From Chiloscyllium plagiosum (lineage: Eukaryota), in NCBI RefSeq assembly GCF_004010195.1, contig NC_057719.1, forward strand, positions 20,484,731 to 20,548,730: DNA of 64,000 nucleotides, read 5' to 3'. The stretch's first letter is position 1, and every line of letters starts with the position of its first letter. Below the pieces are notes generated by a model. The model did no database searches. It saw nothing but the letters and a program-made list of their open reading frames with translations, and was not told the origin of the DNA. A program made the translations under genes and the position numbers. Below are positions 4,304 through 64,000 of the stretch, piece after piece.

Positions 4304-5114
4304 CCGATGTCACATTAACAGTGGTATTTGACCAAAGAAGGTACATCACAATCACCTACAAATTCCCTACAAGGTTGCTCAGCACCCTGACTTGAAACTA
4401 TTTCACAATCCTCCACTGGGACTGGGTAAAAAAATCTGAAGCCACGTTACACTGTTTTAAAATCACTGCTTTATGGAATACAATGGTTTATATAAGTCTT
4501 TCTCTGATGCATTCACGTGGGCAATTAGGAATAAACAAAAAAAAAAGCCTTAGGCAATCACATCCCATGAAATAAAATATTATGTCTATCATCATATATG
4601 AAAGCATTCAGTTTCCTAACTACTGGAGTGCAACTTACAGTCAACAAGGTAAATTGAGTGCTGCAAAATCAAAATCATATTATATTGTCACCAGCACACT
4701 GCAGTACACAACATTAATGCATGTCAATGCACAACTGCACAGCACTGCATTACTGGAAAATAAAGTGTCTGATATCTAAAAACAAATTTTCAGTCAAGTG
4801 ATTTGTTAAGCTTTAAGAGGAAGGTACCATTTTAGGAACCTTATACTGGTATATTCGAGGCTGCATTTTGCAAAATGACTCCAACCACTCCCCATTAAAA
4901 ATTAATTCTTGCCATTGCAAGTGCACAGTGGCAGAAGAGTATATTATTAGCAAGATTTACTGCAGCAATGCCAACGTTCATTCCAAGTACCTTCCAAGCC
5001 TGAAAACAGTTCAATGCTATTCTAGAATATTGTTGAAGGGCTGTTCAAGTAATGAGACCAGTATGAGTTTGGATTTCATTTTTTAAAAATTTCTGGCTGT
5101 TGTTGGACCAATTT

Positions 5115-5434
5115 GGGCGGCACGGTGGCACAGTGGTTAGCACTGCTGCCTCACAGCGCCAGAGACCCGGGTTCAATTCCCGCCTCAGGCGACTGACTGT
5201 GTGGAGTTTGCACGTTCTCCCCGTGTCTGCGTGGGTTTCCTCCGGGTGCTCCGGTTTCCTCCCACAGTCCAAAGATGTGCAGGTCAGGTGAATTGGCCAT
5301 GCTAAAATTGCCCGTAGTGTCAGATAATGGGTAAATGTAGGGTATGGGTGGGTCGCGCTTCGGCGGGGCGGTATGGACTTGTTGGGCCGAAGGGTCTGTT
5401 TCCATACTGTAAGTAATCTAATCTAATCTAATCT
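5115..5434 (+). mobile_element. tRNA-derived V-SINE (HE1-like)
   Basis: Box A TGGCACAGTGG 5126-5136, box B GGGTTCAATTCC 5169-5180, V-domain GGAGTTTGCACGTTCTCCCCGTGTCTGCGTGGGTTTCCTCC, CR1-like 3' end, (CTAAT)n tail. Confidence 0.92.
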
Positions 5435-6814
5435 GCGCACTTTTTAAGGCATGTATGTAGCCATCTGTCCTTTCATCTGTCCATCAAAACATTTTATAAA
5501 GCCAATAAATGTTCCATTTTCATTAGAATTCTACAATGTGAAATGTGACATTAACAACTTGTGAATTCTAGTTACCAATGAAAACATAATATTTATATCG
5601 ATGTCTGCTGATTAACATCACTAATAAGGCTTTTTTCAAAGTTGGCATCATTAATTTATTCATTCTTTTGATTATAAGAATGAAAAGCATCTTATAATTA
5701 TGCCAGTTTCAAAATATGAAAAGAAAGCATATTTGGTAAGATTTTCATTCTTGTGCCTGGAAATATGATCTAGCAACACAGTCAGATTGCAGTTCATTAA
5801 CTTACAGATTAATTTCAGATAAAGGGTTTGCTACATATTTAATACAAAAACCAAATGCAATAACACCAATGGACCAGCCTGGTATTCTTAAAAAAATTAA
5901 AAACAAACTTTATTGGTTTTGAAAATAAAAAAAAAGCAGCACACTTTACAAATATAGAGTTGAAATAATCTACTGCATCTCAGATTCTCTGGGCTCAAGG
6001 TGGGGGTGTATTCCCCCAGGCGAAGTGGGGTGATGGTGTGTCAGAATTTACCTATTCCCTTGGAGGAATATTTGGGTCATGTGGGTGGGGGAAGAGTTGG
6101 AATCATTTTTCAAACTCCAACCTCAAATGCCTTAACATTGTATAGTTCCTAAAATGTTACCTACTTCGCTGCCAGAAGATATAATCTGGCAGCCAAGAAT
6201 ACAACTAGAAAAATGGAATACAATTTAATTAGTTCATGTCAATAAAACTCATTTTTCTTGCCTCTAGGTAGGAGATTGTGGTCATGGACTGTTAATTGTT
6301 TATATCCAAGATGAAGTTGGAATATGTCGAGACTACAGCACAATGCTCAATCCAATGCACAACAGACCAATATAAAACAATAGGGCAGAATATCTTCACT
6401 TGTATTCAGATAACGTACAATATTCTGGCATGCTAGTATTTATTTGACGTGCAATTCAAATATGTGCTCATAAGAATTGACTTTGAGACTGATCATTTCA
6501 ATTCTTAAACTTGGCTACGATCCATAAAGAAACATTGCTGTCAATGCTGCCAATATCTTAACTGATGATGCCTAAAATATGAGCTGCAGGGTTTCAAGTT
6601 AGGTACAATGAGAATTCATTACAGTTCATTCGAAACCAAAAGGAGTTCCAGTTTTGTATAATTAGTGGTATTTCTAATGGACAGAAAACTAAGCTAACAG
6701 TGATAATTATAAGATGATGAGACTGATCATTTGTGTAGTTTTACCAAGTTAGGTAGCTGAACATTATCGGACCAAGAAGAGTGTCTTTGGTGGGATAGGC
6801 ACTAGTCACATATA

Positions 6815-7433
6815 GTCAAGATTAGAGTAGTGCTGGAAAAGCACAGCAGGTCAGGCAGCATTCGAGGAGCAGGAAAATCGATGTTTCGGGCAAAAGCCCT
6901 TCATCAGGAATGAGGCTGGGAGCCTCGGGGGTGGAGAGATAAATGGGAGGGGAGGTGGGGCTGGGGGGGAAGGTAGCTAAGAGTGCAATAGGTGGGATGG
7001 AGGAAGAGGTAAAGGTGACAGTCGAAGAGGAGGGTGCAGCAGATAGATGGGAAGGAAGATTGACAGGTGGGACAGGTCATGAGGATGGTGCTGAGCTGGA
7101 AGGTTGAAAGTGGGGTAAGGTGAGGTGAGGGGAAATGAGGAAACTGGTGAAGTCTATATTGATGGAGTTGGAGGGTCCTGAAGCAGAAGATGAGGCATTC
7201 TTCCTCCAGGCGTTGGGTGGTGAGGGAGTGGCGATGGAGGAGGCCCAGGACCTGCAAGTCCTCGGCAGAGTGGGAAGGGGAGTTGAAATGTTCAGCCACG
7301 GGACGGTGGGGTTGATTGGTATGGGACAAAACGTTGAATTTCCTGCTCCTCGGATGCTGCCTGACCTCCTGTGCATTTTCAGCATCACTTTAATCTTGAC
7401 TCTAATCTCCAGCATCTGCAGTACCCACTTCTG
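6815..7433. mobile_element. Penelope-like element fold-back insertion (minus-strand GIY-YIG C-terminus and terminus, then plus-strand terminus)
   Basis: Minus ORF PVAEHFNSPSHS..RLEEECLIF. Inverted terminal duplication. TSD ACTAGTCA(C/G)ATATA at 6801-6814 and 7434-7447. Confidence 0.85.
6876..6911 (-). ncRNA. Minimal hammerhead ribozyme motif (GUC mutated to AUC)
   Basis: Minus strand ATTC CTGATGA A GGGC TTTT GCCC GAAA C ATC GATT. Confidence 0.65.
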
Positions 7434-9415: not shown

Positions 9416-11159
9416 CAAAGTTGGAATGTAAAGTAAAATTTACATCTGAGCTGTATTTCTCCTGTGTTTGTGTGCTGAAAAAAAAGGCGCTCATTGGTTA
9501 ACCCCTTGCAGCATTACCCAAAGATGGAAGGTGTGTACATGATGTCATCAGAGGTCACCAAAGGTCGGCACCATCTCATTCTACAATAACCAAGCAGCGA
9601 TACCTCAGGAGTTGGTTCATGCTGAAACCATTACTTTTTTTCCAAATATGCCCATGGGATGTGGGCAAGGCCACACTCAAAGATTCATTGTCTGAGAGGA
9701 TAGGAGAAACTGAATCAAGTAACTTTCAAAAAAGAATTGGATAAAATATTTGAAAAAGGAAAAATAAAACATTGCCTCATCTTGGGAAAAGACCAAGAGT
9801 ATTGTAACTAATTGGATAGCTTGTTGAAACATCTGCATCAGGCACAATGGGCCAAATGACTAGCTTCTATCACAAAAACCTTATAGTTCCCATCTGAAGC
9901 ACTGGCTTTCCCTCTGAACATGTGTATTACGTGAGGTGTTTCACTTTAGAAAACACACTCAGGGAAAATGTCGTACGGTGCAGGTAGCACATTTTAAGAA
10001 ATGTGTTTGGTGATGTTACATCTATTTTTTTTCAATTGAGACCATCATGTTCAGATTTTAGACAAGTTATCTTTCAAACTAAAATAGGTTTTGTTGCTGG
10101 GAAATCAGATTTTAAAATGTTATAGTGACATGAGATGTATGGTATTGAAGTTTGTGTTTTATAATTACTGATTTGTGAATTGCCTCAACAATGACTAAGG
10201 TTTCCTCTCTCAGAGGATTGCTAGTGTTTTGGATTTTCTGCCCTAGATAACTGGCTGTTATTGAAACATTTAAGGTTGAGTTAGGTTTTTTTGATGAAGA
10301 AGTATTTTGGGGGGGACAGGCAGGAAAGGGAAGTTATTGTCCTCTTCAGGTGACACCAAATGTGGTGCTACAGTATTAATCAAGTCAACCATGATCTTAG
10401 TGAATGGCTGAGTGGGTTTCAGTTTTCCAAATATCCGAGTCCTACTCCTATTTCTGATATTATTATCAAAGGGAATAAAAACATACAATGAGCTGGGAAA
10501 TAACTAGTAAAAAGTGCTGTTCTATTTGAAAAGAATGTTTCCCACCTGAGGGCATGGTCCTTTCACTTTCTTAGGGCTTTTATCTCTTGCAAGTGATTCA
10601 TTCTATGGACAGTAGTCAACTTGGACTCTAGCTAAAGTTAGCATTAATATGTTTGTTATACATATAAATAATTTTGAGGAGAATCTAAGAAGTCTGATTA
10701 GTAAAGTTGCAAACAACACAAAGATTGGGGGAGCTGCAGACAGTGAGGAGGATTATCAGAGGATAGAATAGGATATAGATAGGCTGCAGAGCTGGGTGGA
10801 GAGACGGCAGATGGAATTTAATCTGACAAATGTAAGGTGATGCGCTTTGGAAGATCTAAAGGAGGAAGGAAGAATACAGTAAATGGCAGAGGGATCTAGG
10901 CATACAGATCGACGATTCCTTAAAGTGCCAATGGGAGTGGGTAAGGTGGTCAAGAAGGTATATGGCATGCTTGCCTTCATGGGTCAGCGCATAGAGTATA
11001 AAGATTGGCAAATCATGTTGCAGTTGTATAAAACTGTACACCACACCACCAGAGGCATAGAGTCATAGAGATGTACAGCATGGAAACAGACCCTTCGGTC
11101 CAACTTGTCCATGCTGACCAGGCTTTGGAGAAGGGAAAGAAATAGTTTACGATGATGTT

Positions 11160-11580
11160 AGGCAGAGGTGGGTACTGCAAATGCTGGGGATTAGACTCAA
11201 GATTAGAGTGGTGCTGGAAAAGCACAGCAGATCAGGCAGCATCTGAGGAGCAGGAAAATTGATATTTCAGACAAAAGCCCTGCATCAGGAGCCCTTACTA
11301 TGCTGTTGGTGCTGAGGTTGGAGAAATCTGAGTTCATCTCTTGTGGTTGGAGGGTTCCTAGGCGGAAGATGAGGCGCTCTTCCTCCAGCCGTCTGGAGAA
11401 ATCTGAGCTCATCTCTTGTGGTTGGAGGGCTCCTAGGCGGAAGATGAGGCACTCTTCCTCCAACCGTCTGGAGAAATCTGAGTTCATCCCTTGTGGTTGG
11501 AGGGTTCCTAGGCGGAAGATGAGGCGCTCTTCCTCCAGCCGTCTGGAGAAATCTGAGTTCATCCCTTGTGGTTGGAGGGT
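11160..11580 (-). mobile_element. Penelope-like element fragment with decayed HHR and tandemly amplified GIY-YIG C-terminal segment
   Basis: Terminus homologous to the 6815 and 63483 copies. TSD TGATGTT at 11153-11159 and 11581-11587. Confidence 0.8.
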
Positions 11581-11581
11581 T
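11319..11581. repeat. 75-bp tandem repeat, about 3.5 copies
   Basis: TGGAGAAATCTGAG recurs at 11319, 11394, 11469 and 11544. Confidence 0.95.
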
Positions 11582-21519: not shown

Positions 21520-21650
21520 AAATAAAGAACTGCAGATGCTGGAAATCTGAAACAAAGACAGAAATTGCTGGTGAAACTCATCAGGTCTCATAGCATCTGT
21601 GGGAAGAAAGTAGAGTTAACGTTTCAAGTCTAGTGACTGATGAAGAGTCC
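21520..21650 (-). mobile_element. Penelope-like terminus, family B, with short fold-back inside the HHR
   Basis: Minus strand ..GTCACTAGACTTGAAACGTTAACT..TTCCAGCATCTGCAG. Plus strand CTGATGAAGAGTC at 21637-21649. Confidence 0.7.
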
Positions 21651-29423: not shown

Positions 29424-32420
29424 TTAAACTGCATTTATTTCAATGCAAGAGGCCTAACAGAGTAGGCAGATGAATTCAGGGCATGGTTAGGGACATGGGA
29501 CTGGGATATCATAGCAATTACAGAAACATGGCTCAGGGATGGGCAGAGCTGACAGCTTACTGTTCCAGGATACAAATGCTGTAGGAAGGATAGAAAGGGG
29601 GCAAGAGAGGACGGGTAGTGGTATTTTTGATATGGGATAGCATTACTGCTACACTTAGGGAAATATTCCTGGGAATACATCCAGGGAAATTATTTAGGTG
29701 GAATTGATAAATAAGAAAGGGCTGATCACCTGACTGGGATTGTATTATAGACTCCCTAACGGTCAGTGGAAAATTGAGAAACAAATTTGTAAGGAGAGTG
29801 CAGTTATCGATAAGAATATTAGGGTGGTTATAGTAGGGAGTTTTAACTTTCCAGACATAGTGTTAATGGTTTAGTTGGAGAGGAATTTGTTAAATGTGTA
29901 CAAGAAAATTTTCTGATTAAGTATGTGGATGTACCTACTAGAGAAGGTGCAAAACTTCACCTACTCTTGGGAAATAAGGCAGAGCAGGTGACTAAGGTGT
30001 CAGTGGAAGAGTACTTTGGGACGAGTGACCATAATTCTATTAGTTTTAAAATAGTGATGGAAAAGGACAGACTGGATCTAAAAGTTGAAGTTCTAAATAG
30101 GAGGAAGGCCAATTTTGACGGTATTAGGCAAGAACTTTCAAAAGTTGATTGAGGGCAGATGTTTGCAGATAAGACTAGATTAGATGACTTGCAGTGTAGC
30201 AACAGGCCCTTTGGCCCAACAAGTCCACACTGACCCTCTGAAGAGCAACCCACCCAGACCCATCACTACGGGCAATTTAGCATGGCCAATCCACACATTT
30301 TGGACTGTGGGAAGAAACCGGACCACTGGGAGGAAACCCACGCAGACACGGGGAGAATGTGCAAACTCTACACAGACAGTTGCCAGGTCTCTGGCAGTGT
30401 GAGGCAGTAGTGCTAACCACTGTGCCACCGTGCCGCCCGCTAGGTAAAGGGATAGCTGAAAAAGGAGAAGCATTCAGAAATGAGATAACAAGAGTCCAGA
30501 GAAAGTATATTCCTGTCAGGTTGAAAGGAAAGGCTGGTAGGTATAGGGAATGCTGGATGACTAAAGAAATTGAGGTTTTGGTTAAGAAAAGAAGGAAGCA
30601 TATGTCAAGTATAGACAGCAGAGATCAAGTGAATCCTTGAAAGGCAGTAGGAGTACACGTAAGAGGGAAATCAGGAGGGCAAAAAGGGGACATGAGATAG
30701 CTTTGGCTAATAGGATTAAGGAGAATCCAAAGGGATGTGATGAATACATTAAGGACAAAAGGATAACTCAGCAGAGAATAGGGTCCATCAAAGATCAGCA
30801 AGGCAGCTGATGTATGGAGCCGCAGGAGATGGGGGAGATACTAAACAAATATTTTGCATCAGTGTTTACAGTGGAGAAGGACATGGAAGATATAGAATGT
30901 CGGGAAATTGATGGTGATATCTTGAAAAATGTCCATATTACAGAGGAGGAGGTGCTGGTTATCTTGAAATGCATAAAAGTGGATAAATCCCCACGATCTG
31001 ATCAGATATGCCCTAGAACTCTGTGGGAAGCTAAGGAAGTGATTGCTGGGCCTCTTGCTGAGATGTCTGTATCATCGATAGTCACAAGTGAGATGCCAGA
31101 AGACTGGAGGTTGGCTAACATGGTGCCACTGTTGAAGAAAAGTAGTAAGGACAAGCCAGGGAACTATAGACCAGTGAGCCTGACATTGGTAGTGGGCAAG
31201 TTGTTGGAGAGAATCCTGAGGGACAGGATTTACATGTATCTGAAAAGACAAGGACTGATTAGGGATAGTCAGCATGGCTTTATGCATGGAAAATCATGTC
31301 TCATAAACTTGATTGAGTTTTTTGAAGAAGTAACAAAGAGGATTGACGAGGACAGAATGGTAGACATGATCTATACAGACTTCAGTAAAGCATTCAAAAG
31401 GTTCCTTATGGGAGGTTGGTTAGTAAGGTTAGATCCCATGGAATACAGGGAGAACTAGCCATTTGGATACAGAACTAGCTCAAAGATAGAAGATAGAGGG
31501 TGGTGGTTGAGTATTGTTTTTCAGACTGGAGGCCTGTGACCAGTGATGGGCAACATGGATCGGTGCTGGGTCCACTAGTTTTCATCATTTATATAAATGA
31601 TTTAGATGTGAAGATAGGAGGTAGAGATAGTAAGTTTGCAGATGGCACCAAAATTGGAGGTGTAATGTACAGCAAAGAAGGTCACCTCAGAGTACAGCAG
31701 GATCTTGATCAGATTGGCCAATGGGCTGAGGGATGGCAGATGGAGTTTAATTTAGATAAATGTTAGGTTCAGCATTTTCCAAAAGCAAATTAGAGCAGAA
31801 CTTATACACTTAATGGTAGGTCCTGAGGAGTGATGCTGAACAAAGAGACCTTGGAGTACATAGTTCCTTGAAATTAGCATCGCAGGTCAATAGGATAGTG
31901 AAGAAGACGTTTGCTATGATTTTCATTATTGATCAGAGCACTGACTATAGGAGTTGGGAGGTCTTGTTGCAGGTGTACAGGACATTGATTCAGCCACTCT
32001 TGGAATATTGCATACAATTCCTGTCTCCTTACTATCAGAAGGATGTTGTGAAACTTGAAAAGGTCGAGAAAAGATTTACAAGGATGTTACCGAGGTTGGA
32101 GGATTTGTGCAATAGGGAGAGGTTGAATGGATTGGGGCTGTTTTCCATGGAGCATCAGAGGTTGAGGGGTGACCTTATAGAGGTTTATAAAATCATGGGG
32201 GGCATGTATAGAATAAAAAGACAAGGTCTTTTCTCTGGGGTGGGGAATCCAGAACTAGAGGGCATAGGTTTCAGGTGAGAGGGGAAAGATATAAAAGGGA
32301 CCGAAGGGGCGGGTGGTGCGTGTATGGAATGAGTTGCCAGTGGAAGTGGTGGAGGCTGGTACTATTGCAGCATTTAAAAGGCATCTGGATGGGTTAATGA
32401 ATAGGAAGGATTTAGAGGGA
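29424..32420 (+). pseudogene. CR1 ORF2 (APE endonuclease and RT), disrupted
   Basis: LNCIYFNARGL, DIIAITETWL, FGTSDHNSI, NYRPVSLT, QHGF, KFADGTK, QPLLEYC. Confidence 0.9.
30176..30438 (-). mobile_element. V-SINE inserted in CR1 ORF2
   Basis: Homologous to 5115-5434. Confidence 0.9.
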
Positions 32421-41932: not shown

Positions 41933-42638
41933 GTATCTATCAAATATTAATGTAGCACTCCCTCATTTCCTGAGTGAGTGAGGAACATTTTAAATTAGTG
42001 GAATGACCCTGACACCCAGCTGGACAGCTAAAGTTTACTCCTTTTTGTTCCAAAGTAGGTCTTTAAGTTACATTGTTAATTTTTTAAATATATAGGTGGT
42101 CTCGGAATCGTAATGAGATCCCCCCTTTTTACAGTTCCAAGTTTAATTTTAAATAGTGTTAAGTCCCCTGAAAGCTTACACTTCTTAGTTGTAAAGAAAT
42201 GTAATACTGGTAAATTCCATGCAAGTCATGGGCCTCCCATTTCCCTTGAAAATGAACCTTGCTGAATAGTCAAGTTTGGTTCATACTTTTCTGACTCAGG
42301 GGTATGTTATCACATTAGAACATGTTTTGAATTATAATATTTTCTATTCAATTGTGGTTTCATTATTAATTCTTACACTGGGCTGTTTTCGTGACCCTCA
42401 CCCCTTCGCTCTGCGTCACTGACATCGAAAAATTGCCAACCGCTCAGGATCCTCATGGGATCTCTCCAATCTTCTTAGCTTATGTAGCAATGTCCTGGAT
42501 TTCAGGATGCACGGGCAACTAGCATTGAAAGACTGCTGTGAGGGCACTTTTCGGCATAGGGTCAGGTACTCCATTCACAGTTTTGAAGAAGAGTCACTGG
42601 ACCTGAAACAGTAACTCTGTTTTCTCTTCACAGATGCT

Positions 42639-42997
42639 TGGACTTCACCAGTTTCTTCATCCCCCCTCCCCCCACCTTGTCTCAGCCGAATCCCTCCAGC
42701 CCGGCACCGCCTTCCTGACCTGCAGTCTTCTTCTTGACCTCTCCGCCTCCACCCTACTCCGACCTATCACCTTCACCTTGACCTCTTTCCACCTATCACA
42801 TTTCCAACGCCCCTCCTCCAAGTCCCTCCTCCCTACCTTTTATCTTCTCCTGCTGAACACTCTCTGCCCATTCCTGAAGAAGGGCCTGTGCCCGAAACGT
42901 CGAATCTCCTGTTCCCTGGATGCTGCCTGACCTGCTGTGCTGTTCCAGCAATAAAGTTTCAGCTTTGATCTCCAGCGTCTGCAAACCTCACTTTCTC
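42639..42997 (+). mobile_element. PLE family A 3' fragment with HHR and tail
   Basis: Starts at GIY-YIG end (DFTSF), pyrimidine-rich tract, HHR. TSD CTTCACAGATGCT at 42626-42638 and 42998-43010. Confidence 0.88.
42870..42905 (+). ncRNA. Minimal type I hammerhead ribozyme motif, intact
   Basis: ATTC CTGAAGA A GGGC CTGT GCCC GAAA C GTC GAAT: perfect stem I and stem II, GUC triplet at 42899-42901. Confidence 0.8.
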
Positions 42998-44714
42998 CTT
43001 CACAGATGCTGTCAGATTTACTGAGTTTCTCCAGGAATTTCCACTTTTGTTTGCCATGAGGTTTTTGCTCCCTATGCGTTTACTCACTTAGCATCCACCT
43101 GAATGCTTGCAGCATCCCTGCCTTACCTCGTCTTGCCTAATGGCGCAGTCCCATAACCAGATAGCATGCCTTTCTCAGTCTAAGGAGACAGACATCCACC
43201 TGTACAGCAGTGTGCTTCATCGATCTCATAGCTGTACCATATGCCAGCAGCTTACACAGCAAACACACTGTTTGCGCAGCAGGCAGCCAGCCATGTCTTA
43301 AAGTCTTAGGCAAGAAGTTTTCACCAAACTCCATGGAGACAGCTGACAGCTGAGGGAATCATGTATGGTAAGGCAAGGGCAGCCTCTGAATCGCCTCAAG
43401 GGGATTGGCCACGAACAGCCAGGACATTATCGGTCAGGGAGCCCATGCCTCTGGAGTCCAGCGAGTGGGTCACAATCAGTCATGTGGCTCCAGAGTGGCC
43501 AGTCCAAGAGTAAGGTGAACACACTCAGGAAGATTTACAGGTATTGGTCAGGGATCTGGGCATTTCTTATCTAGGGCTGTTCGCTCGGTTACTGAGGGAG
43601 TAGGCTGTGATCTGTCTATTGATTCACCCGGAAAAGGTTAAAGTAGTTGGTTGGGGGTTGTGGTGGGGTAAGGAGAGGTCGATGCTGGGGGAATATACTC
43701 ATGAGAATTGAGTGCTGCAGGTTAGGGGAGCAGTGAAAAAGACAATTGTGAAGGGGGGTAATTATACTTCTAAGTGGGTTGGGGGAGAATATGGTAAAGC
43801 GAGGGTGGAAACGGGGTAATGCAGGGTTGGGGTGGGGTTAGTGGTTAGTCCACCATCAGAACCACCCCAGCATCATGGTGGGAAACACTGTTTGATCAGA
43901 CTTTGGCATGGTCACCTCATATGCCAAGGGCTGGGAGGATAAAGGTGGGCAAATACAGAATCATTTGGATCCTGGTGGGTGGGGATCTGGGGATAGGTGC
44001 AAAGCTTATGGGTTTCTCAGGAAGGGCTATGGAAAGGGAAGTTGGATATTTGGGCTCTCAACAACACATCAAGTTGGAGTTTGGATATCACTGTCTCAAC
44101 AGCACTCACTGACATCTTGTGTTGTGATAGAAATGCAGAAATGGAACAAAAATGGCCACAATAATATCAGAATGGACACGGTGTCTCAACCTGTGAGGGA
44201 GGGGAATGCAAGCTTCACTGATGTGACGTACTTTAGGAGAAACAACATTACACACAGATCCACACAGGATGTAGGGGCTCCCAATTCCTCAAGACCCAAA
44301 TTAATTGGCTTCCTGTGTGCTGTACACCTGCCTGTCCCAGACATTGCTGATCACTTCATTCAATACTAACACTTCTACACACAGAGGTCAGAAAAAGAAT
44401 AGCAATTTTTGAACAAATGATACTGGCAGAACCCATTGTCCCTTATACGCCTTGTTTACCGTGCCTCTATATACTATAATAGGCTCTTAACCAAGATATC
44501 ACTCCATGTTGCATCCTAAGTGGTCAGAATGTTAGACATCGTGGTACCACAGTTACATTTGGGGCTAAACGAGAGACTCAAATGGATGCAGTGCAATAAC
44601 ATTCACACTTAAGGAAACATAAGCATTGATAAGGAGTACAACATCCCTGTGCTATCAATCTGAGATTCTAGTCATTGCCCAGCACTTGTGTAATGCTAAT
44701 ATTCATTGTCATTG

Positions 44715-46731: not shown

Positions 46732-46954
46732 ACTGAAAACAGCAAATGCTGGGGATCATAGTGGGTTAGACAGTATCCACGGAGAGAGAGGAAGCTAATG
46801 ATTTGACTCTGGATGACTCTGCATGAGATGAAGAGTTATCTATACTCGAAATGTCTGCTTGCTCTCTCTCCATCAAAGCTGTTTGACCCACTGTGATCTC
46901 CAGTATTTGTTGTTTTCAGTACAGATTCCAGCATCTGGCATAATTTGCTCCTAG
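46732..46954. mobile_element. Old fold-back PLE terminus (family B-related) with decayed HHRs
   Basis: Diverged inverted arms 46732-~46827 and ~46827-46920, 34-nt tail containing TTCCAGCATCTG, GATGA A GAGT..ACTC GAAATGTC. Confidence 0.75.
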
Positions 46955-51689: not shown

Positions 51690-53220
51690 ATGATGTGCAA
51701 TGGACCTTAAAACACTATCTGCAAACTGCATCATCCAATCTAACATTACTGTCAAACCAGGGGATCAACTCTGGCTTGAAGGATTCAGGACATACTGCCA
51801 GGAGCAACTTAGAAATAAAATATTAACTAGATAACAGGACTGCTTACATGCCAAACAGCATAAGCAGCAAGTGTTATACAGGAGTAATTGATTCCTCAAC
51901 CAACAAATCAGAACAAAGCCCTGGAATTCTGTCACATCCAGTCATGGATGATGAGATACAATTAAACATTCTATAGGAGAAGGTTGCAGAAGTCCAGCAC
52001 ATCAGTGCAAAGATAAGGCCGAAGCCTTTTCAAGAAATGCTGAGTGGATGATTCAACTTAGCCTTCTCTGGAGGCCCCCATCATCATGGATGACAGTCTT
52101 CAACCAATCTAATTCAATCAATGTGATATCAAGAAATAGTTGAAGGCAATGAGCCCTGACAATATTCTGTTTGTAAGACAAAGATCTGTGTAACCATGCC
52201 TCTAGCTAAACTGTTCAGCTACAACACTGGCATCTACCTGGCAGTGTGTGAAATTGCACTGCTATGTTTCGTAAATAGAAACCAAGACAATTCCAATCTG
52301 ATTAATTTACATCACTTCTGTTTACACTCAAAGCGATAAAAAGAGTCATCAACAGAGATCATTTACCAGCACTTGCTAGCATGAAGCTGCACACAGATGC
52401 TCATTTTGGGTTCTGCCAGGGCCACTAGGCTCTTGACCTTATTTCAGCTGTGGTTCAAAGATGGATAAAAAGCTGAATTCCAGAGGTAGGTGAAATAGGC
52501 CATGTCCAAATGGAACAAGACAGGGACAATATCCAAGTTTGGACAGATAAGTTGCAACAACATTCGCACCACACAATCGCCAGGAAATGAACATCTCCAG
52601 CAAGAAGAATTGAGCCATCAGTCCTTTATTTTCAATGACATTGCCATCACTAAGTCTCCCATTATCAACATCCTGGGGATTACCATTGACAAGAAACTGA
52701 ACTGGAGTGGTTATATAAAAACAATAACAACAGTTGGTCAGAGGCTTGGAATTTTTCAACAAGAAATTCTCTTAACTCCAATAACGTCTACAAGCCACAA
52801 GACAGGGGTGCATTGGAATACTCTGCATTGCCTGATTGGATACAACTTTAGCACCACTCAAGGAGTTTGACACCTTCCAAGACAATGATTCATGCTTGAC
52901 TGGTACCATATCCAAAAACATTCACTCCCCACAACACCAATGCTCCTTAGCAGTAGTGTTTACCTTCCAAATCCATGACCATTACTGTTGAGCAAGACAA
53001 TGGTTACAGATACATGGGAACACTGTCAACCACAACTTCCCCTCAGTATACAGATTTGAACTATATTATTGTTTCTTTACTGTCACTTGTTAAAGTTCTG
53101 GAATTCTCTCCCTGTAGTATTGTGGGTATCATGAGTATTGCAGCAGTTCAAGAAGGTACCTCACCACCATCATTGCTGGACTAGCCAGAAATGCCCACAT
53201 CACCTGAATTGATAAAAAAA
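51690..53220 (+). mobile_element. Second-family LINE, decayed ORF2 and 3' end
   Basis: AHFGFCQG, INILGITIDKKLNW; 3' end GCTGGACTAGCCAGAAATGCCCACATC. Confidence 0.8.
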
Positions 53221-59780: not shown

Positions 59781-60019
59781 CACCTGCAACGCCACTCTCC
59801 TCTAATTTGTCTCTGCTGCCTGTGCCCAACTGACCAACATCTGAGTCACCACTCTTCAGGCCTCATTGATAACCTGGAGTCCCTTGCTCCAGGCCTATTG
59901 CAATCAGAAGCTGCCACCATCATCTTGTTGGTAAACAAGAGCTTTTATACCCTTCTCATACATTCTACTAAGGGAGAAACACAAAATTTGTTGGCAGTTT
60001 GGGATATAATACAACAAGG

Positions 60020-60850
60020 CCTTACAACAGGACCCGGACAATATCCAAGCTTGGGCTGACAGTGGCAAGTGACATTCGCACAACACAAATGCCAGGCTAT
60101 GACCATCACCAACATGAAGCAATCTAACCACTGCCCCTTGACATTCAACTGTGTTACCTTCACTGAATCCCTGACGACCAATATCTTGAGAGTTATCATT
60201 GTTCAAAAACTCAACTGGCCTTACTCCACATAAACACAGTGGCTACAGCAGCAGGTCAGAGAGTAGAAAAATTGCAGCGAGTAACTCATCTCCTGAAAGC
60301 CTGTCCACCATCTACTAGATACAAGTCAGAAGCGTGATGGAATAGTCCCCCCACTTGCCTGGATGAATGCAGCCCCAACAAGACTCAAGAAGCTTGACAC
60401 CAGCCAGGTCAAAACAGCCAACTTGATTGATACTGCATCCACAAGCATCCACTCCATCCTCTGCCAATATTCTGAAGCAGCAGTGTGTGCTATCTACAAG
60501 ATGCACTGCAGAAATTCACCAAAGATCCTCAGACAGCACCTTCCAAACCCACGACCGTTTCCATCCAGGAAGACAACGGCAGCAGATATATTGAAACACC
60601 ACCATATTCAAGTTCCCCTACAAGCCACTCACCAGCCTGACTTGGAAATATACCGCCATTCTTCACAGTTGCTGGGTCAATATCCTGGAATTCCCTCCCT
60701 AATGGCATTGTGGGTCAACCCACAGCAGGTGGACTGCAGCGGTTCAAGAAAGCAGCTCACCACCACCTTCCCATGGATAACTACGGACAGGCAATAAATG
60801 CTGGCCAGACAGCGACACCCACATCCCACTAAAAAAGAGAAGAAAAGAAA
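60020..60850 (+). mobile_element. Second-family CR1/L2-group LINE 3' part (best copy)
   Basis: DNIQAWAD, QVRSVME, AAPTRLKKLDTSQ, AIYKMHCRNSPKILRQHLPNPRP; A-rich tail. Confidence 0.85.
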
Positions 60851-61004
60851 AATGCCACAGGAGCCAGCTTACTGTTGAGCAGAGGTTATCTGATCCTCAT
60901 TATCTTCCTAGTCATAAGCAATTTGGGTGGCACAGTGGCGCTACTGTCTCTTAGTATCGGAGAATTGGGCTTGATTCCAGCCTTGGGCAGATGGGTTAGG
61001 CCTC

Positions 61005-61565
61005 CTAGCAGAGCGCTTTAGGGAACATCTCTGGGACACCTGCACCAATCAACCACACCGCCCTGTGGCCCAACATTTCAACTCCCCCTCCCACCCTGCC
61101 GAGGACATGGAGGTCCTGGGCCTCCTTCACCGCCGCTCCCTCACCACCCGACGCCTGGAGGAAGAACGCCTCATCTTCTGCCTCGGAACACTTCAACCCC
61201 AGGGCATCAATGTGGACTTCAACAGTTTCCTCATTTCCCCTTCCCCCACCTCACCCCAGTTCCAAACTTCCAGCTCAGCACTGTCCCCATGACTTGTCCG
61301 GACTTGTCCTACCTGCCTATCTCCTTTTCCACCTATCCACTCCACCCTCTCCTCCCTGACCTATCACCTTCATCCCCTCCCCCACTCACCCTATTGTACT
61401 CTATGCTACTTTCTCCCCACCCCCACCCTCCTCCAGCTTATCTCTCCACGCTTCAGGCTCTCTGCCTTTATTTCTGATGAAGGGCTTTTGCCCGAAACAT
61501 CGATTTTACTGCTCCTCGGATGCTGCCTGAACTGCTGTGCTCTTCCAGCACCACTAATCCAGAAT
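61005..61565 (+). mobile_element. PLE family A fragment (GIY-YIG C-terminus, pyrimidine tract, HHR) inside a decayed V-SINE (~60925-61636)
   Basis: AERFREHLWD..PVAQHFNSPSH..RRLEEERLIFCLGTLQPQGINVDF, typical PLE GIY-YIG C-terminal motifs. Confidence 0.88.
61470..61505 (+). ncRNA. Minimal hammerhead ribozyme motif (GUC mutated to AUC)
   Basis: ATTT CTGATGA A GGGC TTTT GCCC GAAA C ATC GATT. Confidence 0.65.
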
Positions 61566-62635: not shown

Positions 62636-62734
62636 TTTTGCTGAAGCTCCTCAGATGCTGCCTGAACTGCTGTGCTCTTCCAGCACCATTGATCCAGAAT
62701 CTGGTTTCCAGCATCTGCAGTCATTGTTTTTACC
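62636..62734 (+). mobile_element. 99-bp PLE family A terminal insertion
   Basis: TSD ATGTATCAGA at 62626-62635 and 62735-62744; matches 63615-63712. Confidence 0.88.
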
Positions 62735-63445: not shown

Positions 63446-63542
63446 TATATAAGAACATAAGAACTAGGAGCATGAGTAGGCCATTCTGGATCAGTGGTGC
63501 TGGAAGAGCACAGCAATTCAGGCAGCATCCGAGGACAGGCAA

Positions 63543-63578
63543 AATCGACGTTTCGGGCAAAAGCCCTTCATCAGGAAT
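63543..63578 (-). ncRNA. Minimal hammerhead ribozyme motif (mirror copy)
   Basis: Exact reverse complement of 63583-63618. Confidence 0.78.
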
Positions 63579-63582
63579 ATTT

Positions 63583-63618
63583 ATTCCTGATGAAGGGCTT
63601 TTGCCCGAAACGTCGATT
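63583..63618 (+). ncRNA. Minimal hammerhead ribozyme motif
   Basis: ATTC CTGATGA A GGGC TTTT GCCC GAAA C GTC GATT; GUC at 63612-63614. Confidence 0.78.
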
Positions 63619-64000
63619 TTGCCTGTCCTCGGATGCTGCCTGAATTGCTGTGCTCTTCCAGCACCACTGATCCAGAATCTGATTTCCAGCATCTGCAGTC
63701 ATTGTTTTTACCTGCATGAGTAGGCCATCTGGTCCTTCGAGCCTGCACCGCCATTCAATAAGATCGTGGCTGATCTTTTTGTGGCCTAAGCTCCACTTAA
63801 CCACCATCTCACTGTAATCCTTAATTCCTTTACTGTTCATAACATTATCTATCTTAGCTTTAAAAGTATTCAATGAGGAAGCCTCAACTACTTCACTGGG
63901 CAGGGAATTCCACAGATTCACACCCCTCGGAGCGAAGATGTTCCTTCTCATTTCGTCCTAAATCTGCTCTGCCTAATTTTGAGGTTATACCCTTTTGTCC

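Follow-up and report, generated by a model that had tools for sequence, protein, structure and literature searches.

Minimal type I hammerhead ribozymes in Penelope-like elements of a shark genome: stems covarying between families and copy 5' ends that point to mostly uncut templates

Analysis of a 64,000-nucleotide stretch of the Chiloscyllium plagiosum genome (3.56 Gb), referred to here as the window (contig C10), revealed minimal type I hammerhead ribozymes (HHRs) carried by Penelope-like elements (PLEs). The reading that we hold to be probable is that these HHRs sit in the pLTRs of the elements with stems covarying between families, that the predicted cut after GUC would take place only through copies paired by a palindrome, and that most genomic copies likely derive from uncut RNA likely starting at stem I. 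The motif is already known, having been described in 2014 together with its covariation, its palindrome, and the dimer model (PMC4209133). The part worth following is the record of copy 5' ends, which points to a start at stem I and mostly uncut templates.

An earlier sequence-only reading of the window had placed a minimal HHR at 42870-42905 on the plus strand, and this identification was confirmed, the motif being an intact minimal type I hammerhead situated at the end of a PLE copy flanked by a 13-bp target-site duplication (Table 1). The copy contains the end of the endonuclease coding region, the 3' UTR, the HHR, and the tail, and sits within an older family B copy. Its attribution to a PLE also held, with the HHR following the GIY-YIG motif and features matching those described for PLE hammerheads (PMC4209133). 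The minimum-energy fold of 42870-42905 consisted of exactly stems I and II without helix III (z = -0.81, no better than shuffles), and none of the single-sequence folding z-scores of the HHRs and tails was significant. The search with Rfam hammerhead models that had been suggested as a check was unsuccessful, with no hammerhead family among the 8 window matches at E <= 10.

Table 1. Positions in the window of PLE copies and of the parts of the copy at 42639-42997.
Feature	Position	Strand	Remark
Family A insertion	6809..7433	-	Minus arm, long, bearing an endonuclease remnant and the HHR core 6907-6880, CpG-decayed (ACGT to ACAT); inverted plus arm 7329-7433; 8-bp duplication candidate
Decayed short family A copy	11159..11290	-	Broken core 11288-11261
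Family B copy split by inversion	21560..21649	.	Halves on opposite strands; HHR 21614-21649; + strand, first core half (21637-21649); - strand, GAAACGTT half and tail
5' part of older family B copy, decayed HHR (C3 and U16.1 lost)	42579..42638	+	Broken core 42583-42612; tail resumes after 42998
Target-site duplication, 13 bp, left	42626..42638	+	
Family A (CTGT-loop subfamily) PLE copy, 5'-truncated	42639..42997	+	Bounds from self-BLAST and the 13-bp duplication; fully intact core 42874-42901
AT-rich box in TATA position, putative function	42838..42844	+	~30 nt upstream of inferred start
Initiator-like motif (pyrimidine-A-pyrimidine) overlapping stem I 5' strand	42868..42874	+	Inferred +1 at 42870; pile-up of copy ends at -4 to -2
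HHR stem I 5' strand ATTC	42870..42873	+	
Catalytic core C3-A9 (CTGAAGA) with extra unpaired A	42874..42881	+	Extra A typical of PLE HHRs (PMC4209133)
Stem II GGGC/GCCC with CTGT loop	42882..42893	+	
G12-A15.1 (GAAA), palindrome ACGT, triplet GTC	42894..42901	+	Palindrome at 42897-42900
Predicted cut	between 42901 and 42902	+	From known HHR numbering
HHR stem I 3' strand GAAT	42902..42905	+	
Tail with predicted long stem-loop	42906..42997	+	AATAAA at 42950-42955
Two usual 3' end points in tail	near 42962 and 42997	+	
Target-site duplication, 13 bp, right	42998..43010	+	
Old head-to-head family B pair	46732..46920	.	Decayed HHR, broken core 46828-46855 (+)
Family A (TTTT-loop) copy with GIY-YIG C-terminal frame and 3' UTR	60975..61565	+	Frame 60975-61292; HHR 61474-61501 CpG-decayed (ACGT to ACAT)
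Solo family A tail	62636..62734	+	Starts at or 2 nt after predicted cut; 10-bp duplication
Young head-to-head family A pair	63485..63713	.	Two fully intact cores, 63574-63547 (-) and 63587-63614 (+); long tail on right arm only; 15-bp duplication

The motif is present far above chance. Exact patterns matched 111,490 sites genome-wide (A, 80,312; B, 556; C, 14,393; D, 16,229), and the reversed-sequence controls for the four patterns gave 0 each. A family-agnostic descriptor applied to a 1.21-Mb sample (twelve 100-kb blocks plus the window) returned 98 matches against 6 in the reversed control, or 71 against 1 when at least three of the four stem I pairs were demanded. Families C and D, absent from the sites listed previously, were found by this descriptor. 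At up to 4 mismatches family A had 109 matches in the same sample, corresponding to ~300,000 copies if extrapolated.

The HHR follows GIY-YIG in families A, B, C, and D, at a distance of ~430-530 nt downstream of the motif in longer copies. One locus held a 462-aa frame with reverse transcriptase (RT) motifs and a GIY-YIG match (L090; Pfam E 7e-4, just under the curated cut-off), relatives of the family A protein carry PF00078 and PF01541, and the closest named relatives of the element's protein are from carpet sharks and rays. The RT + GIY-YIG ORF of families B and C is known from endonuclease remnants only. ORF-start loci were counted for 29 of 30 (one lacked an ATG match), and 8/29 displayed an HHR 165 nt before the ATG. 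The occurrence of the HHR both after the ORF and before its start assigns it to the pLTR. No gap-free full-length element was identified among 20 long-frame loci of this gappy assembly; the window itself has an assembly gap at ~1291-2250 (957 N in total), and gaps likewise interrupt many long PLE copies elsewhere. Upstream of GIY-YIG, a Cx4Cx2C linker occurs in family A, at 2 loci of B, and at 1 locus of C, and is absent in D. Judged by this linker, families A-C would be of Neptune or Nematis type and D looks Poseidon-like; a cysteine linker between RT and endonuclease also occurs in Nematis (PMC8557442).

Traits of endonuclease-bearing PLEs were present, including 5' truncation, an inverted 5' arm (72/159), an optional 30-40 bp tail, and target-site duplications, which measured 10-15 bp in 9/57 copies compared with 0 in the control. 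Copy 3' ends formed two clusters ~35 nt apart, and by analogy with the Anolis element (PMC11167929) the corresponding points near 42962 and 42997 are likely reverse-transcription start sites. Predicted long-range tail stems in families A, C, and D enclose the first 3' end point (window 42902-43000 and 63615-63713; L230:5927-6020; L149:1580-1675); their sequences are unrelated, their z-scores are not significant, and they resemble the AC-rich stem-loop of Anolis Poseidon.

The proposal that stem changes across families are compensatory was supported by 13 real copies, one per subfamily, picked as intact and hand-anchored on the core. Stem I and II cells were paired in 93/104 cases compared with 23-43 in slid registers and 46% for cross-family strands, and 0/20,000 row permutations reached the count, these shuffle controls ignoring relatedness. 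Three Watson-Crick types occurred at each of the first three stem I pairs and three or four at stem II pairs 2-4. All 13 representatives, having been picked as intact, carry the core CUGANGA...GAAA...NUH; the unpaired nucleotide between A9 and 10.1 is A or T in 13/13, and the 10.1-11.1 pair is G-C in 11 and G-U in 2. Within family A or family C, pairing showed no gain over cross-subfamily strands. The fourth stem I pair holds in 6/13 representatives, and the two commonest A subfamilies have U-U at the third, leaving only two contiguous stem I pairs. In a 15-row MAFFT alignment, 0/500 shuffles reached the pairing percentage, the double-change cells, or the covariation score, and the measures that count pairs or types were reached by 27 and 148 of 500, partly because MAFFT shifted family C by one column. 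The nine window copies alone are poor covariation evidence because six of them are decayed.

The self-complementary helix III palindrome was strengthened by family C. The 15.2-16.2 palindrome is C-G (ACGU) in 10 representatives and G-C (AGCU) in 3, all of family C, and exact copies of the AGCT type number 14,393. The palindrome thus survives a two-sided change, and because it cannot pair within one strand, nothing else in the sequences speaks as strongly for a helix III shared by two copies.

Decay after insertion followed the CpG pattern predicted from the window. Among 83 of the 95 family A copies reaching C3 (12 were left out for indels or a shifted frame), the six HHR CpG positions differ in 12-30%, and core, palindrome, and stem II are all kept in 29. 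Non-CpG differences amounted to 39/830 (4.7%) in the core and 183/3,569 (5.1%) in the tail (p = 0.66). Selection on inserted copies was rejected, since the core decays like its flanks, and the suggested selection on structure in active elements is therefore upheld as acting on source elements.

All nine sites listed by the sequence-only reading hold an HHR or a piece of one, although only three are intact. Both cores near 63543 and 63583 proved intact but form a head-to-head inverted repeat and hence no dimer substrate. The stem I given for family A, ATTC/GAAT, applies at 42870, whereas the other A copies whose stem I 3' strand is undecayed read GATT there, giving the U-U mismatch at the third pair that most family A copies have. 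The GAGT/ACTC stem II has a counterpart in a real subfamily (GAGTC/GACTC), but the copy at 42579 resembles the GGGTC/GACCC subfamily, and its GAGT facing ACCT is therefore probably decay rather than compensation. The "TATCTAT loop" at 46826 turned out to be a decayed 5-bp stem around a 5-nt loop.

Further features accompany these copies. The 63485-63713 pair is a 196-bp, 99% inverted repeat, and its mir-2007 and mir-722 scores, far below the gathering thresholds, were rejected as reflecting the inverted repeat; head-to-head pairs could supply much hairpin RNA, with 72/159 sampled arms inverted. Adjoining the HHR copy at 11288, positions 11319-11581 hold 3.5 copies of a 75-bp PLE endonuclease-region unit in the opposite orientation. 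Insertions of one PLE into the tail of another were found as A into B in the window (42626-43010) and as A into C and C/D into others in the sample (L230 block, L262, L270, and L080), and a preference for pLTR targets is possible. Reverse transcriptase-like fragments at 251-2600, 29847-32278, 52499-52870, and 59904-60797 are presumably of CR1/L2-type LINEs, as judged from their motifs, and short SINE-like repeats lie near 2617-2946, 5045-5422, and 30281-30640.

To read 5' ends, copies were gathered by their tail, a criterion that does not involve the 5' end, and then placed on 80 long references with C3 as position 0 and the cut at +28. From 174 A-type records, 170 were mapped and 11 beside gaps were dropped, leaving 159 that include a few B-like copies. 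Ends at -5..0 accounted for 42/159 (7 per nt) compared with 0.11 per nt from -194 to -21. In young subfamilies (n = 59) the edge at -4 was sharp, with 14 ends at -4, 14 at -3, 4 at -5, and 1 at -6. Inverted junctions, where target DNA is absent, contributed 27 of the 42 pile-up copies (27/72 of such junctions). Loose ends at 42870 of the window copy comprised 78 reads and 25 contigs among the ends listed. A TTATY box was kept at -36 to -33 in 63/80 long family A references (64 including one at -43), reading TTATC in family A rather than canonical TATA, and in family C a TATAAA occupies -38 to -40 in 18/21 references. Family C 5' ends lie further upstream than those of A (median -7 vs -4, p = 0.007; ends at or before -6 in 29/49 vs 16/58, p = 0.0015). 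The A subfamily whose box sits 2 nt more upstream shows the same tendency, 7/14 vs 12/59 of its ends lying at -5 or earlier (p = 0.04, or 0.12 in a rank test). A start ~30 nt after a TATA-position box, on the initiator-like motif, would fit all three groups (family A, family C, and shifted-box A), and the pile-up before stem I with its box-linked shift makes transcription start at the ribozyme likely.

Nested patterns extended in three 4-nt steps over young copies fell from 52,780 to 51,150, 49,469, and 48,062 matches, that is, by 3.09%, 3.29%, and 2.84%, the middle step crossing the cut site. No more than 3.3% of the 51,150 young copies, mutation included, have their 5' end at the cut site, and ~97% run across it, so that the inserted RNA was likely uncut for the most part. 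Poly(A) single-cell reads labelled with the same species covered family A in both orientations (1,058 reads) and family C mainly in one (2,308 reads), with depth unbroken across the predicted cut, no start or end pile-ups in families A and C, and no family C peak among the loose ends listed. As such libraries lose short cut products and mix in host read-through, these reads establish just that uncut RNA exists. Poly(A) followed AATAAA/ATTAAA in the tails in 58 reads for A (CTGT subfamily; window 42950-42967) and in 254 and 339 for C (L230:5937-5958), and tail copies of both may also end host transcripts. The family C poly(A) site lies upstream of the usual 3' ends (5981-5984 and 6020), so that the putative RT start region would be missing from these RNAs.

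The arrangement of neighbouring copies bears on the dimer model. Head-to-head pairs within 300 bp numbered 12 against 0.8 expected, five further close pairs scored tail-to-tail, and same-strand pairs up to 5 kb were not enriched (1, 3, and 21 against 1.8, 6.8, and 19.1 expected). Tandem retrozyme arrays were rejected, with no HHR tandem in the window and no excess of same-strand pairs. The same-strand family A HHR nearest to the copy at 42870 is that at 61474. The double-hammerhead fold came within ~2 kcal/mol of two monomers and was the best duplex in 0/10 subfamilies; these energies say little or speak slightly against the dimer, and would suit an activity that is weak or assisted by protein. 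Cleavage by a dimer is a plausible mechanism, and it is weakened by the lack of a nearby same-strand partner in the window and by most inserted templates having an uncut site. Four family C head-to-head pairs with the same 15-nt gap between cores were present among the first 100 matches listed (G000:C1:2944396-2944466, 12299814-12299884, 19156311-19156381, and 19332925-19332995); this would follow if both arms extended to an identical RNA terminus, or from amplification of a single hairpin.

With the HHR as described, the 5' pile-up could instead come from stalling of the RT or from nicking of the element's own ATT by its endonuclease, or could mark where a self-priming antisense template has its 3' end; we regard these origins as unlikely. 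The Anolis endonuclease prefers ATT (PMC11167929) and family A has ATT at -4, head-to-head palindromic junctions have been read as antisense self-priming (PMC3846280), and family D, with a clear TATAAA, lacks a pile-up (44/76 copies reach -144 or beyond and 2 end at -18). However, family C is without ATT there and yet piles up at an offset following its TATAAA, direct copies with target-site duplications begin at the pile-up too, and RT stalling at a structure should show on the fold's 3' side. Microhomology with a target-site ATT was likewise rejected as the main cause of the -4 edge, as 1/9 perfect duplications ends in ATT and inverted junctions pile up too.

Two rival views of the ribozyme itself were considered. 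Routine processing, in which an HHR pair excises unit-length RNA and the circle or cut linear then serves as insertion template (Cervera and de la Pena), seems improbable to us. It would account for a small excess of ends at the cut site (8/159 at +28..+31, p = 0.008), for the window copy at 62636 starting there, and for the second same-strand HHR downstream at 5/8 of the ORF-start loci with a 5' HHR. Among ORF-start copies, 6/29 begin at +28..+31 and 4 at -8..0 compared with 8 and 48 in the general sample (p = 0.004, bins chosen after looking), but the enrichment drops to p = 0.09 against sequence-matched T-run subfamilies, where the T-run could give microhomology. The scarcity of young copies stopping at the site, the sharp -4 edge, for which a circle gives no ground, and the normal in vitro insertion of Anolis HHR mutants (PMC11167929) also argue against it, and the excess is best taken as a hint of occasional cleavage, not a result. 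Retention of the fold as a binding or regulatory structure or as a pLTR passenger, with cleavage in vivo rare or never, appears very unlikely. The weak stem I of the most abundant subfamilies, nearest-neighbour energies that do not favour the dimer, RNA reads spanning the cut site, and the success of Naiad PLEs without HHRs (PMC8557442) are consistent with such a role; against it, all catalytic nucleotides are kept across families with widely differing stems, tails, and endonucleases, as is the NUH triplet (GUC, GUU, CUA, and CUU), and the family C palindrome changed on both sides.

In the mechanism proposed here, the pLTR promoter would fire at the first base of stem I, so that the RNA would open with the ribozyme as its leading ~36 nt. 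Without helix III, a lone copy would stay uncut, whereas in a unit with 5' and 3' pLTRs the two palindromes could form a shared 4-bp helix III. Such a unit would be cleaved slowly, likely with assistance from the protein that the element encodes, which is what has been reported in Anolis Poseidon; the cut would release a capped leader of ~32 nt. Reverse transcription would likely begin inside the tail and run to the RNA 5' end, which would yield abundant short solo copies and head-to-head pairs. More tentatively, and with doubts outweighing our belief, the initiator doubling as stem I in shark Neptune-type PLEs could make dimer cleavage a self-decapping switch for two-pLTR transcripts only; single-HHR transcripts would stay capped and uncut, seeding hundreds of thousands of short SINE-like copies, and the genome would keep a record of both states, with 5' ends lying at the start site and, where a copy bears the ORF, at the cut site.

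With more than 100,000 exact-match copies in four families, genomic DNA by itself suffices for reading the 5' ends of templates. The resulting record, of mostly uncut templates and a likely stem I start, agrees with the one in vitro study and speaks against processing as a routine step. A ready compensatory test of the dimer model is available in the natural ACGU/AGCU pair, and the decapping reading, if true, would make PLE hammerheads regulatory rather than replicative. The role of the HHR in endonuclease-bearing PLEs has been called unclear (PMC8557442). The literature search returned no paper dealing with PLE hammerheads of sharks or with overlap between stem I and a start site, although subscription papers and Repbase/Dfam may cover sharks; these are absent from the text of PMC4209133 and from the two supplementary files searched, and one chondrichthyan is included in bioRxiv 10.64898/2026.07.22.740005.

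The shark motifs share with metazoan PLE HHRs the core, the extra nucleotide between A9 and 10.1, the G10.1-C11.1 pair, the palindromic 15.2-16.2, and the lack of helix III, as well as many covarying families per genome, mostly single dispersed copies, and close opposite-strand pairs, and differ in the shorter stem II of families A-C (4-5 bp) and in number, with ~9,000 Xenopus copies cited as remarkable compared with 111,490 exact matches here (PMC4209133). For the metazoan motif an inactive monomer and weak dimer cleavage were reported (PMC4209133). Poseidon PAc of Anolis (Frangieh et al., 2024; PMC11167929) similarly has two 3' end points ~35 nt apart in the tail, a tail stem-loop immediately preceded by the HHR, uncut RNA as main substrate, and no RNA-seq ends at the cut site; its HHR is protein-assisted and dispensable for insertion in vitro, and its RT starts are internal. 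Its ORF starts in stem II, whereas that of the shark TTTT subfamily starts 165 nt after C3, and families A-C have the Neptune-type cysteine linker, only D being Poseidon-like. A promoter in the pLTR with TATA-like and initiator-like motifs is shared with the Penelope of D. virilis (PMC2377424) and of rotifers (PMC3846280), but in D. virilis an intron lies between start site and HHR, whereas in the shark stem I is itself overlapped by the initiator-like motif, on which the copy ends accumulate. Animal non-LTR retrozymes are likewise short non-coding HHR-bearing units derived from PLEs (PMC7229834; bioRxiv 10.64898/2026.07.22.740005); they form head-to-tail tandem arrays (PMC7229834), whereas the shark copies are solo or head-to-head.
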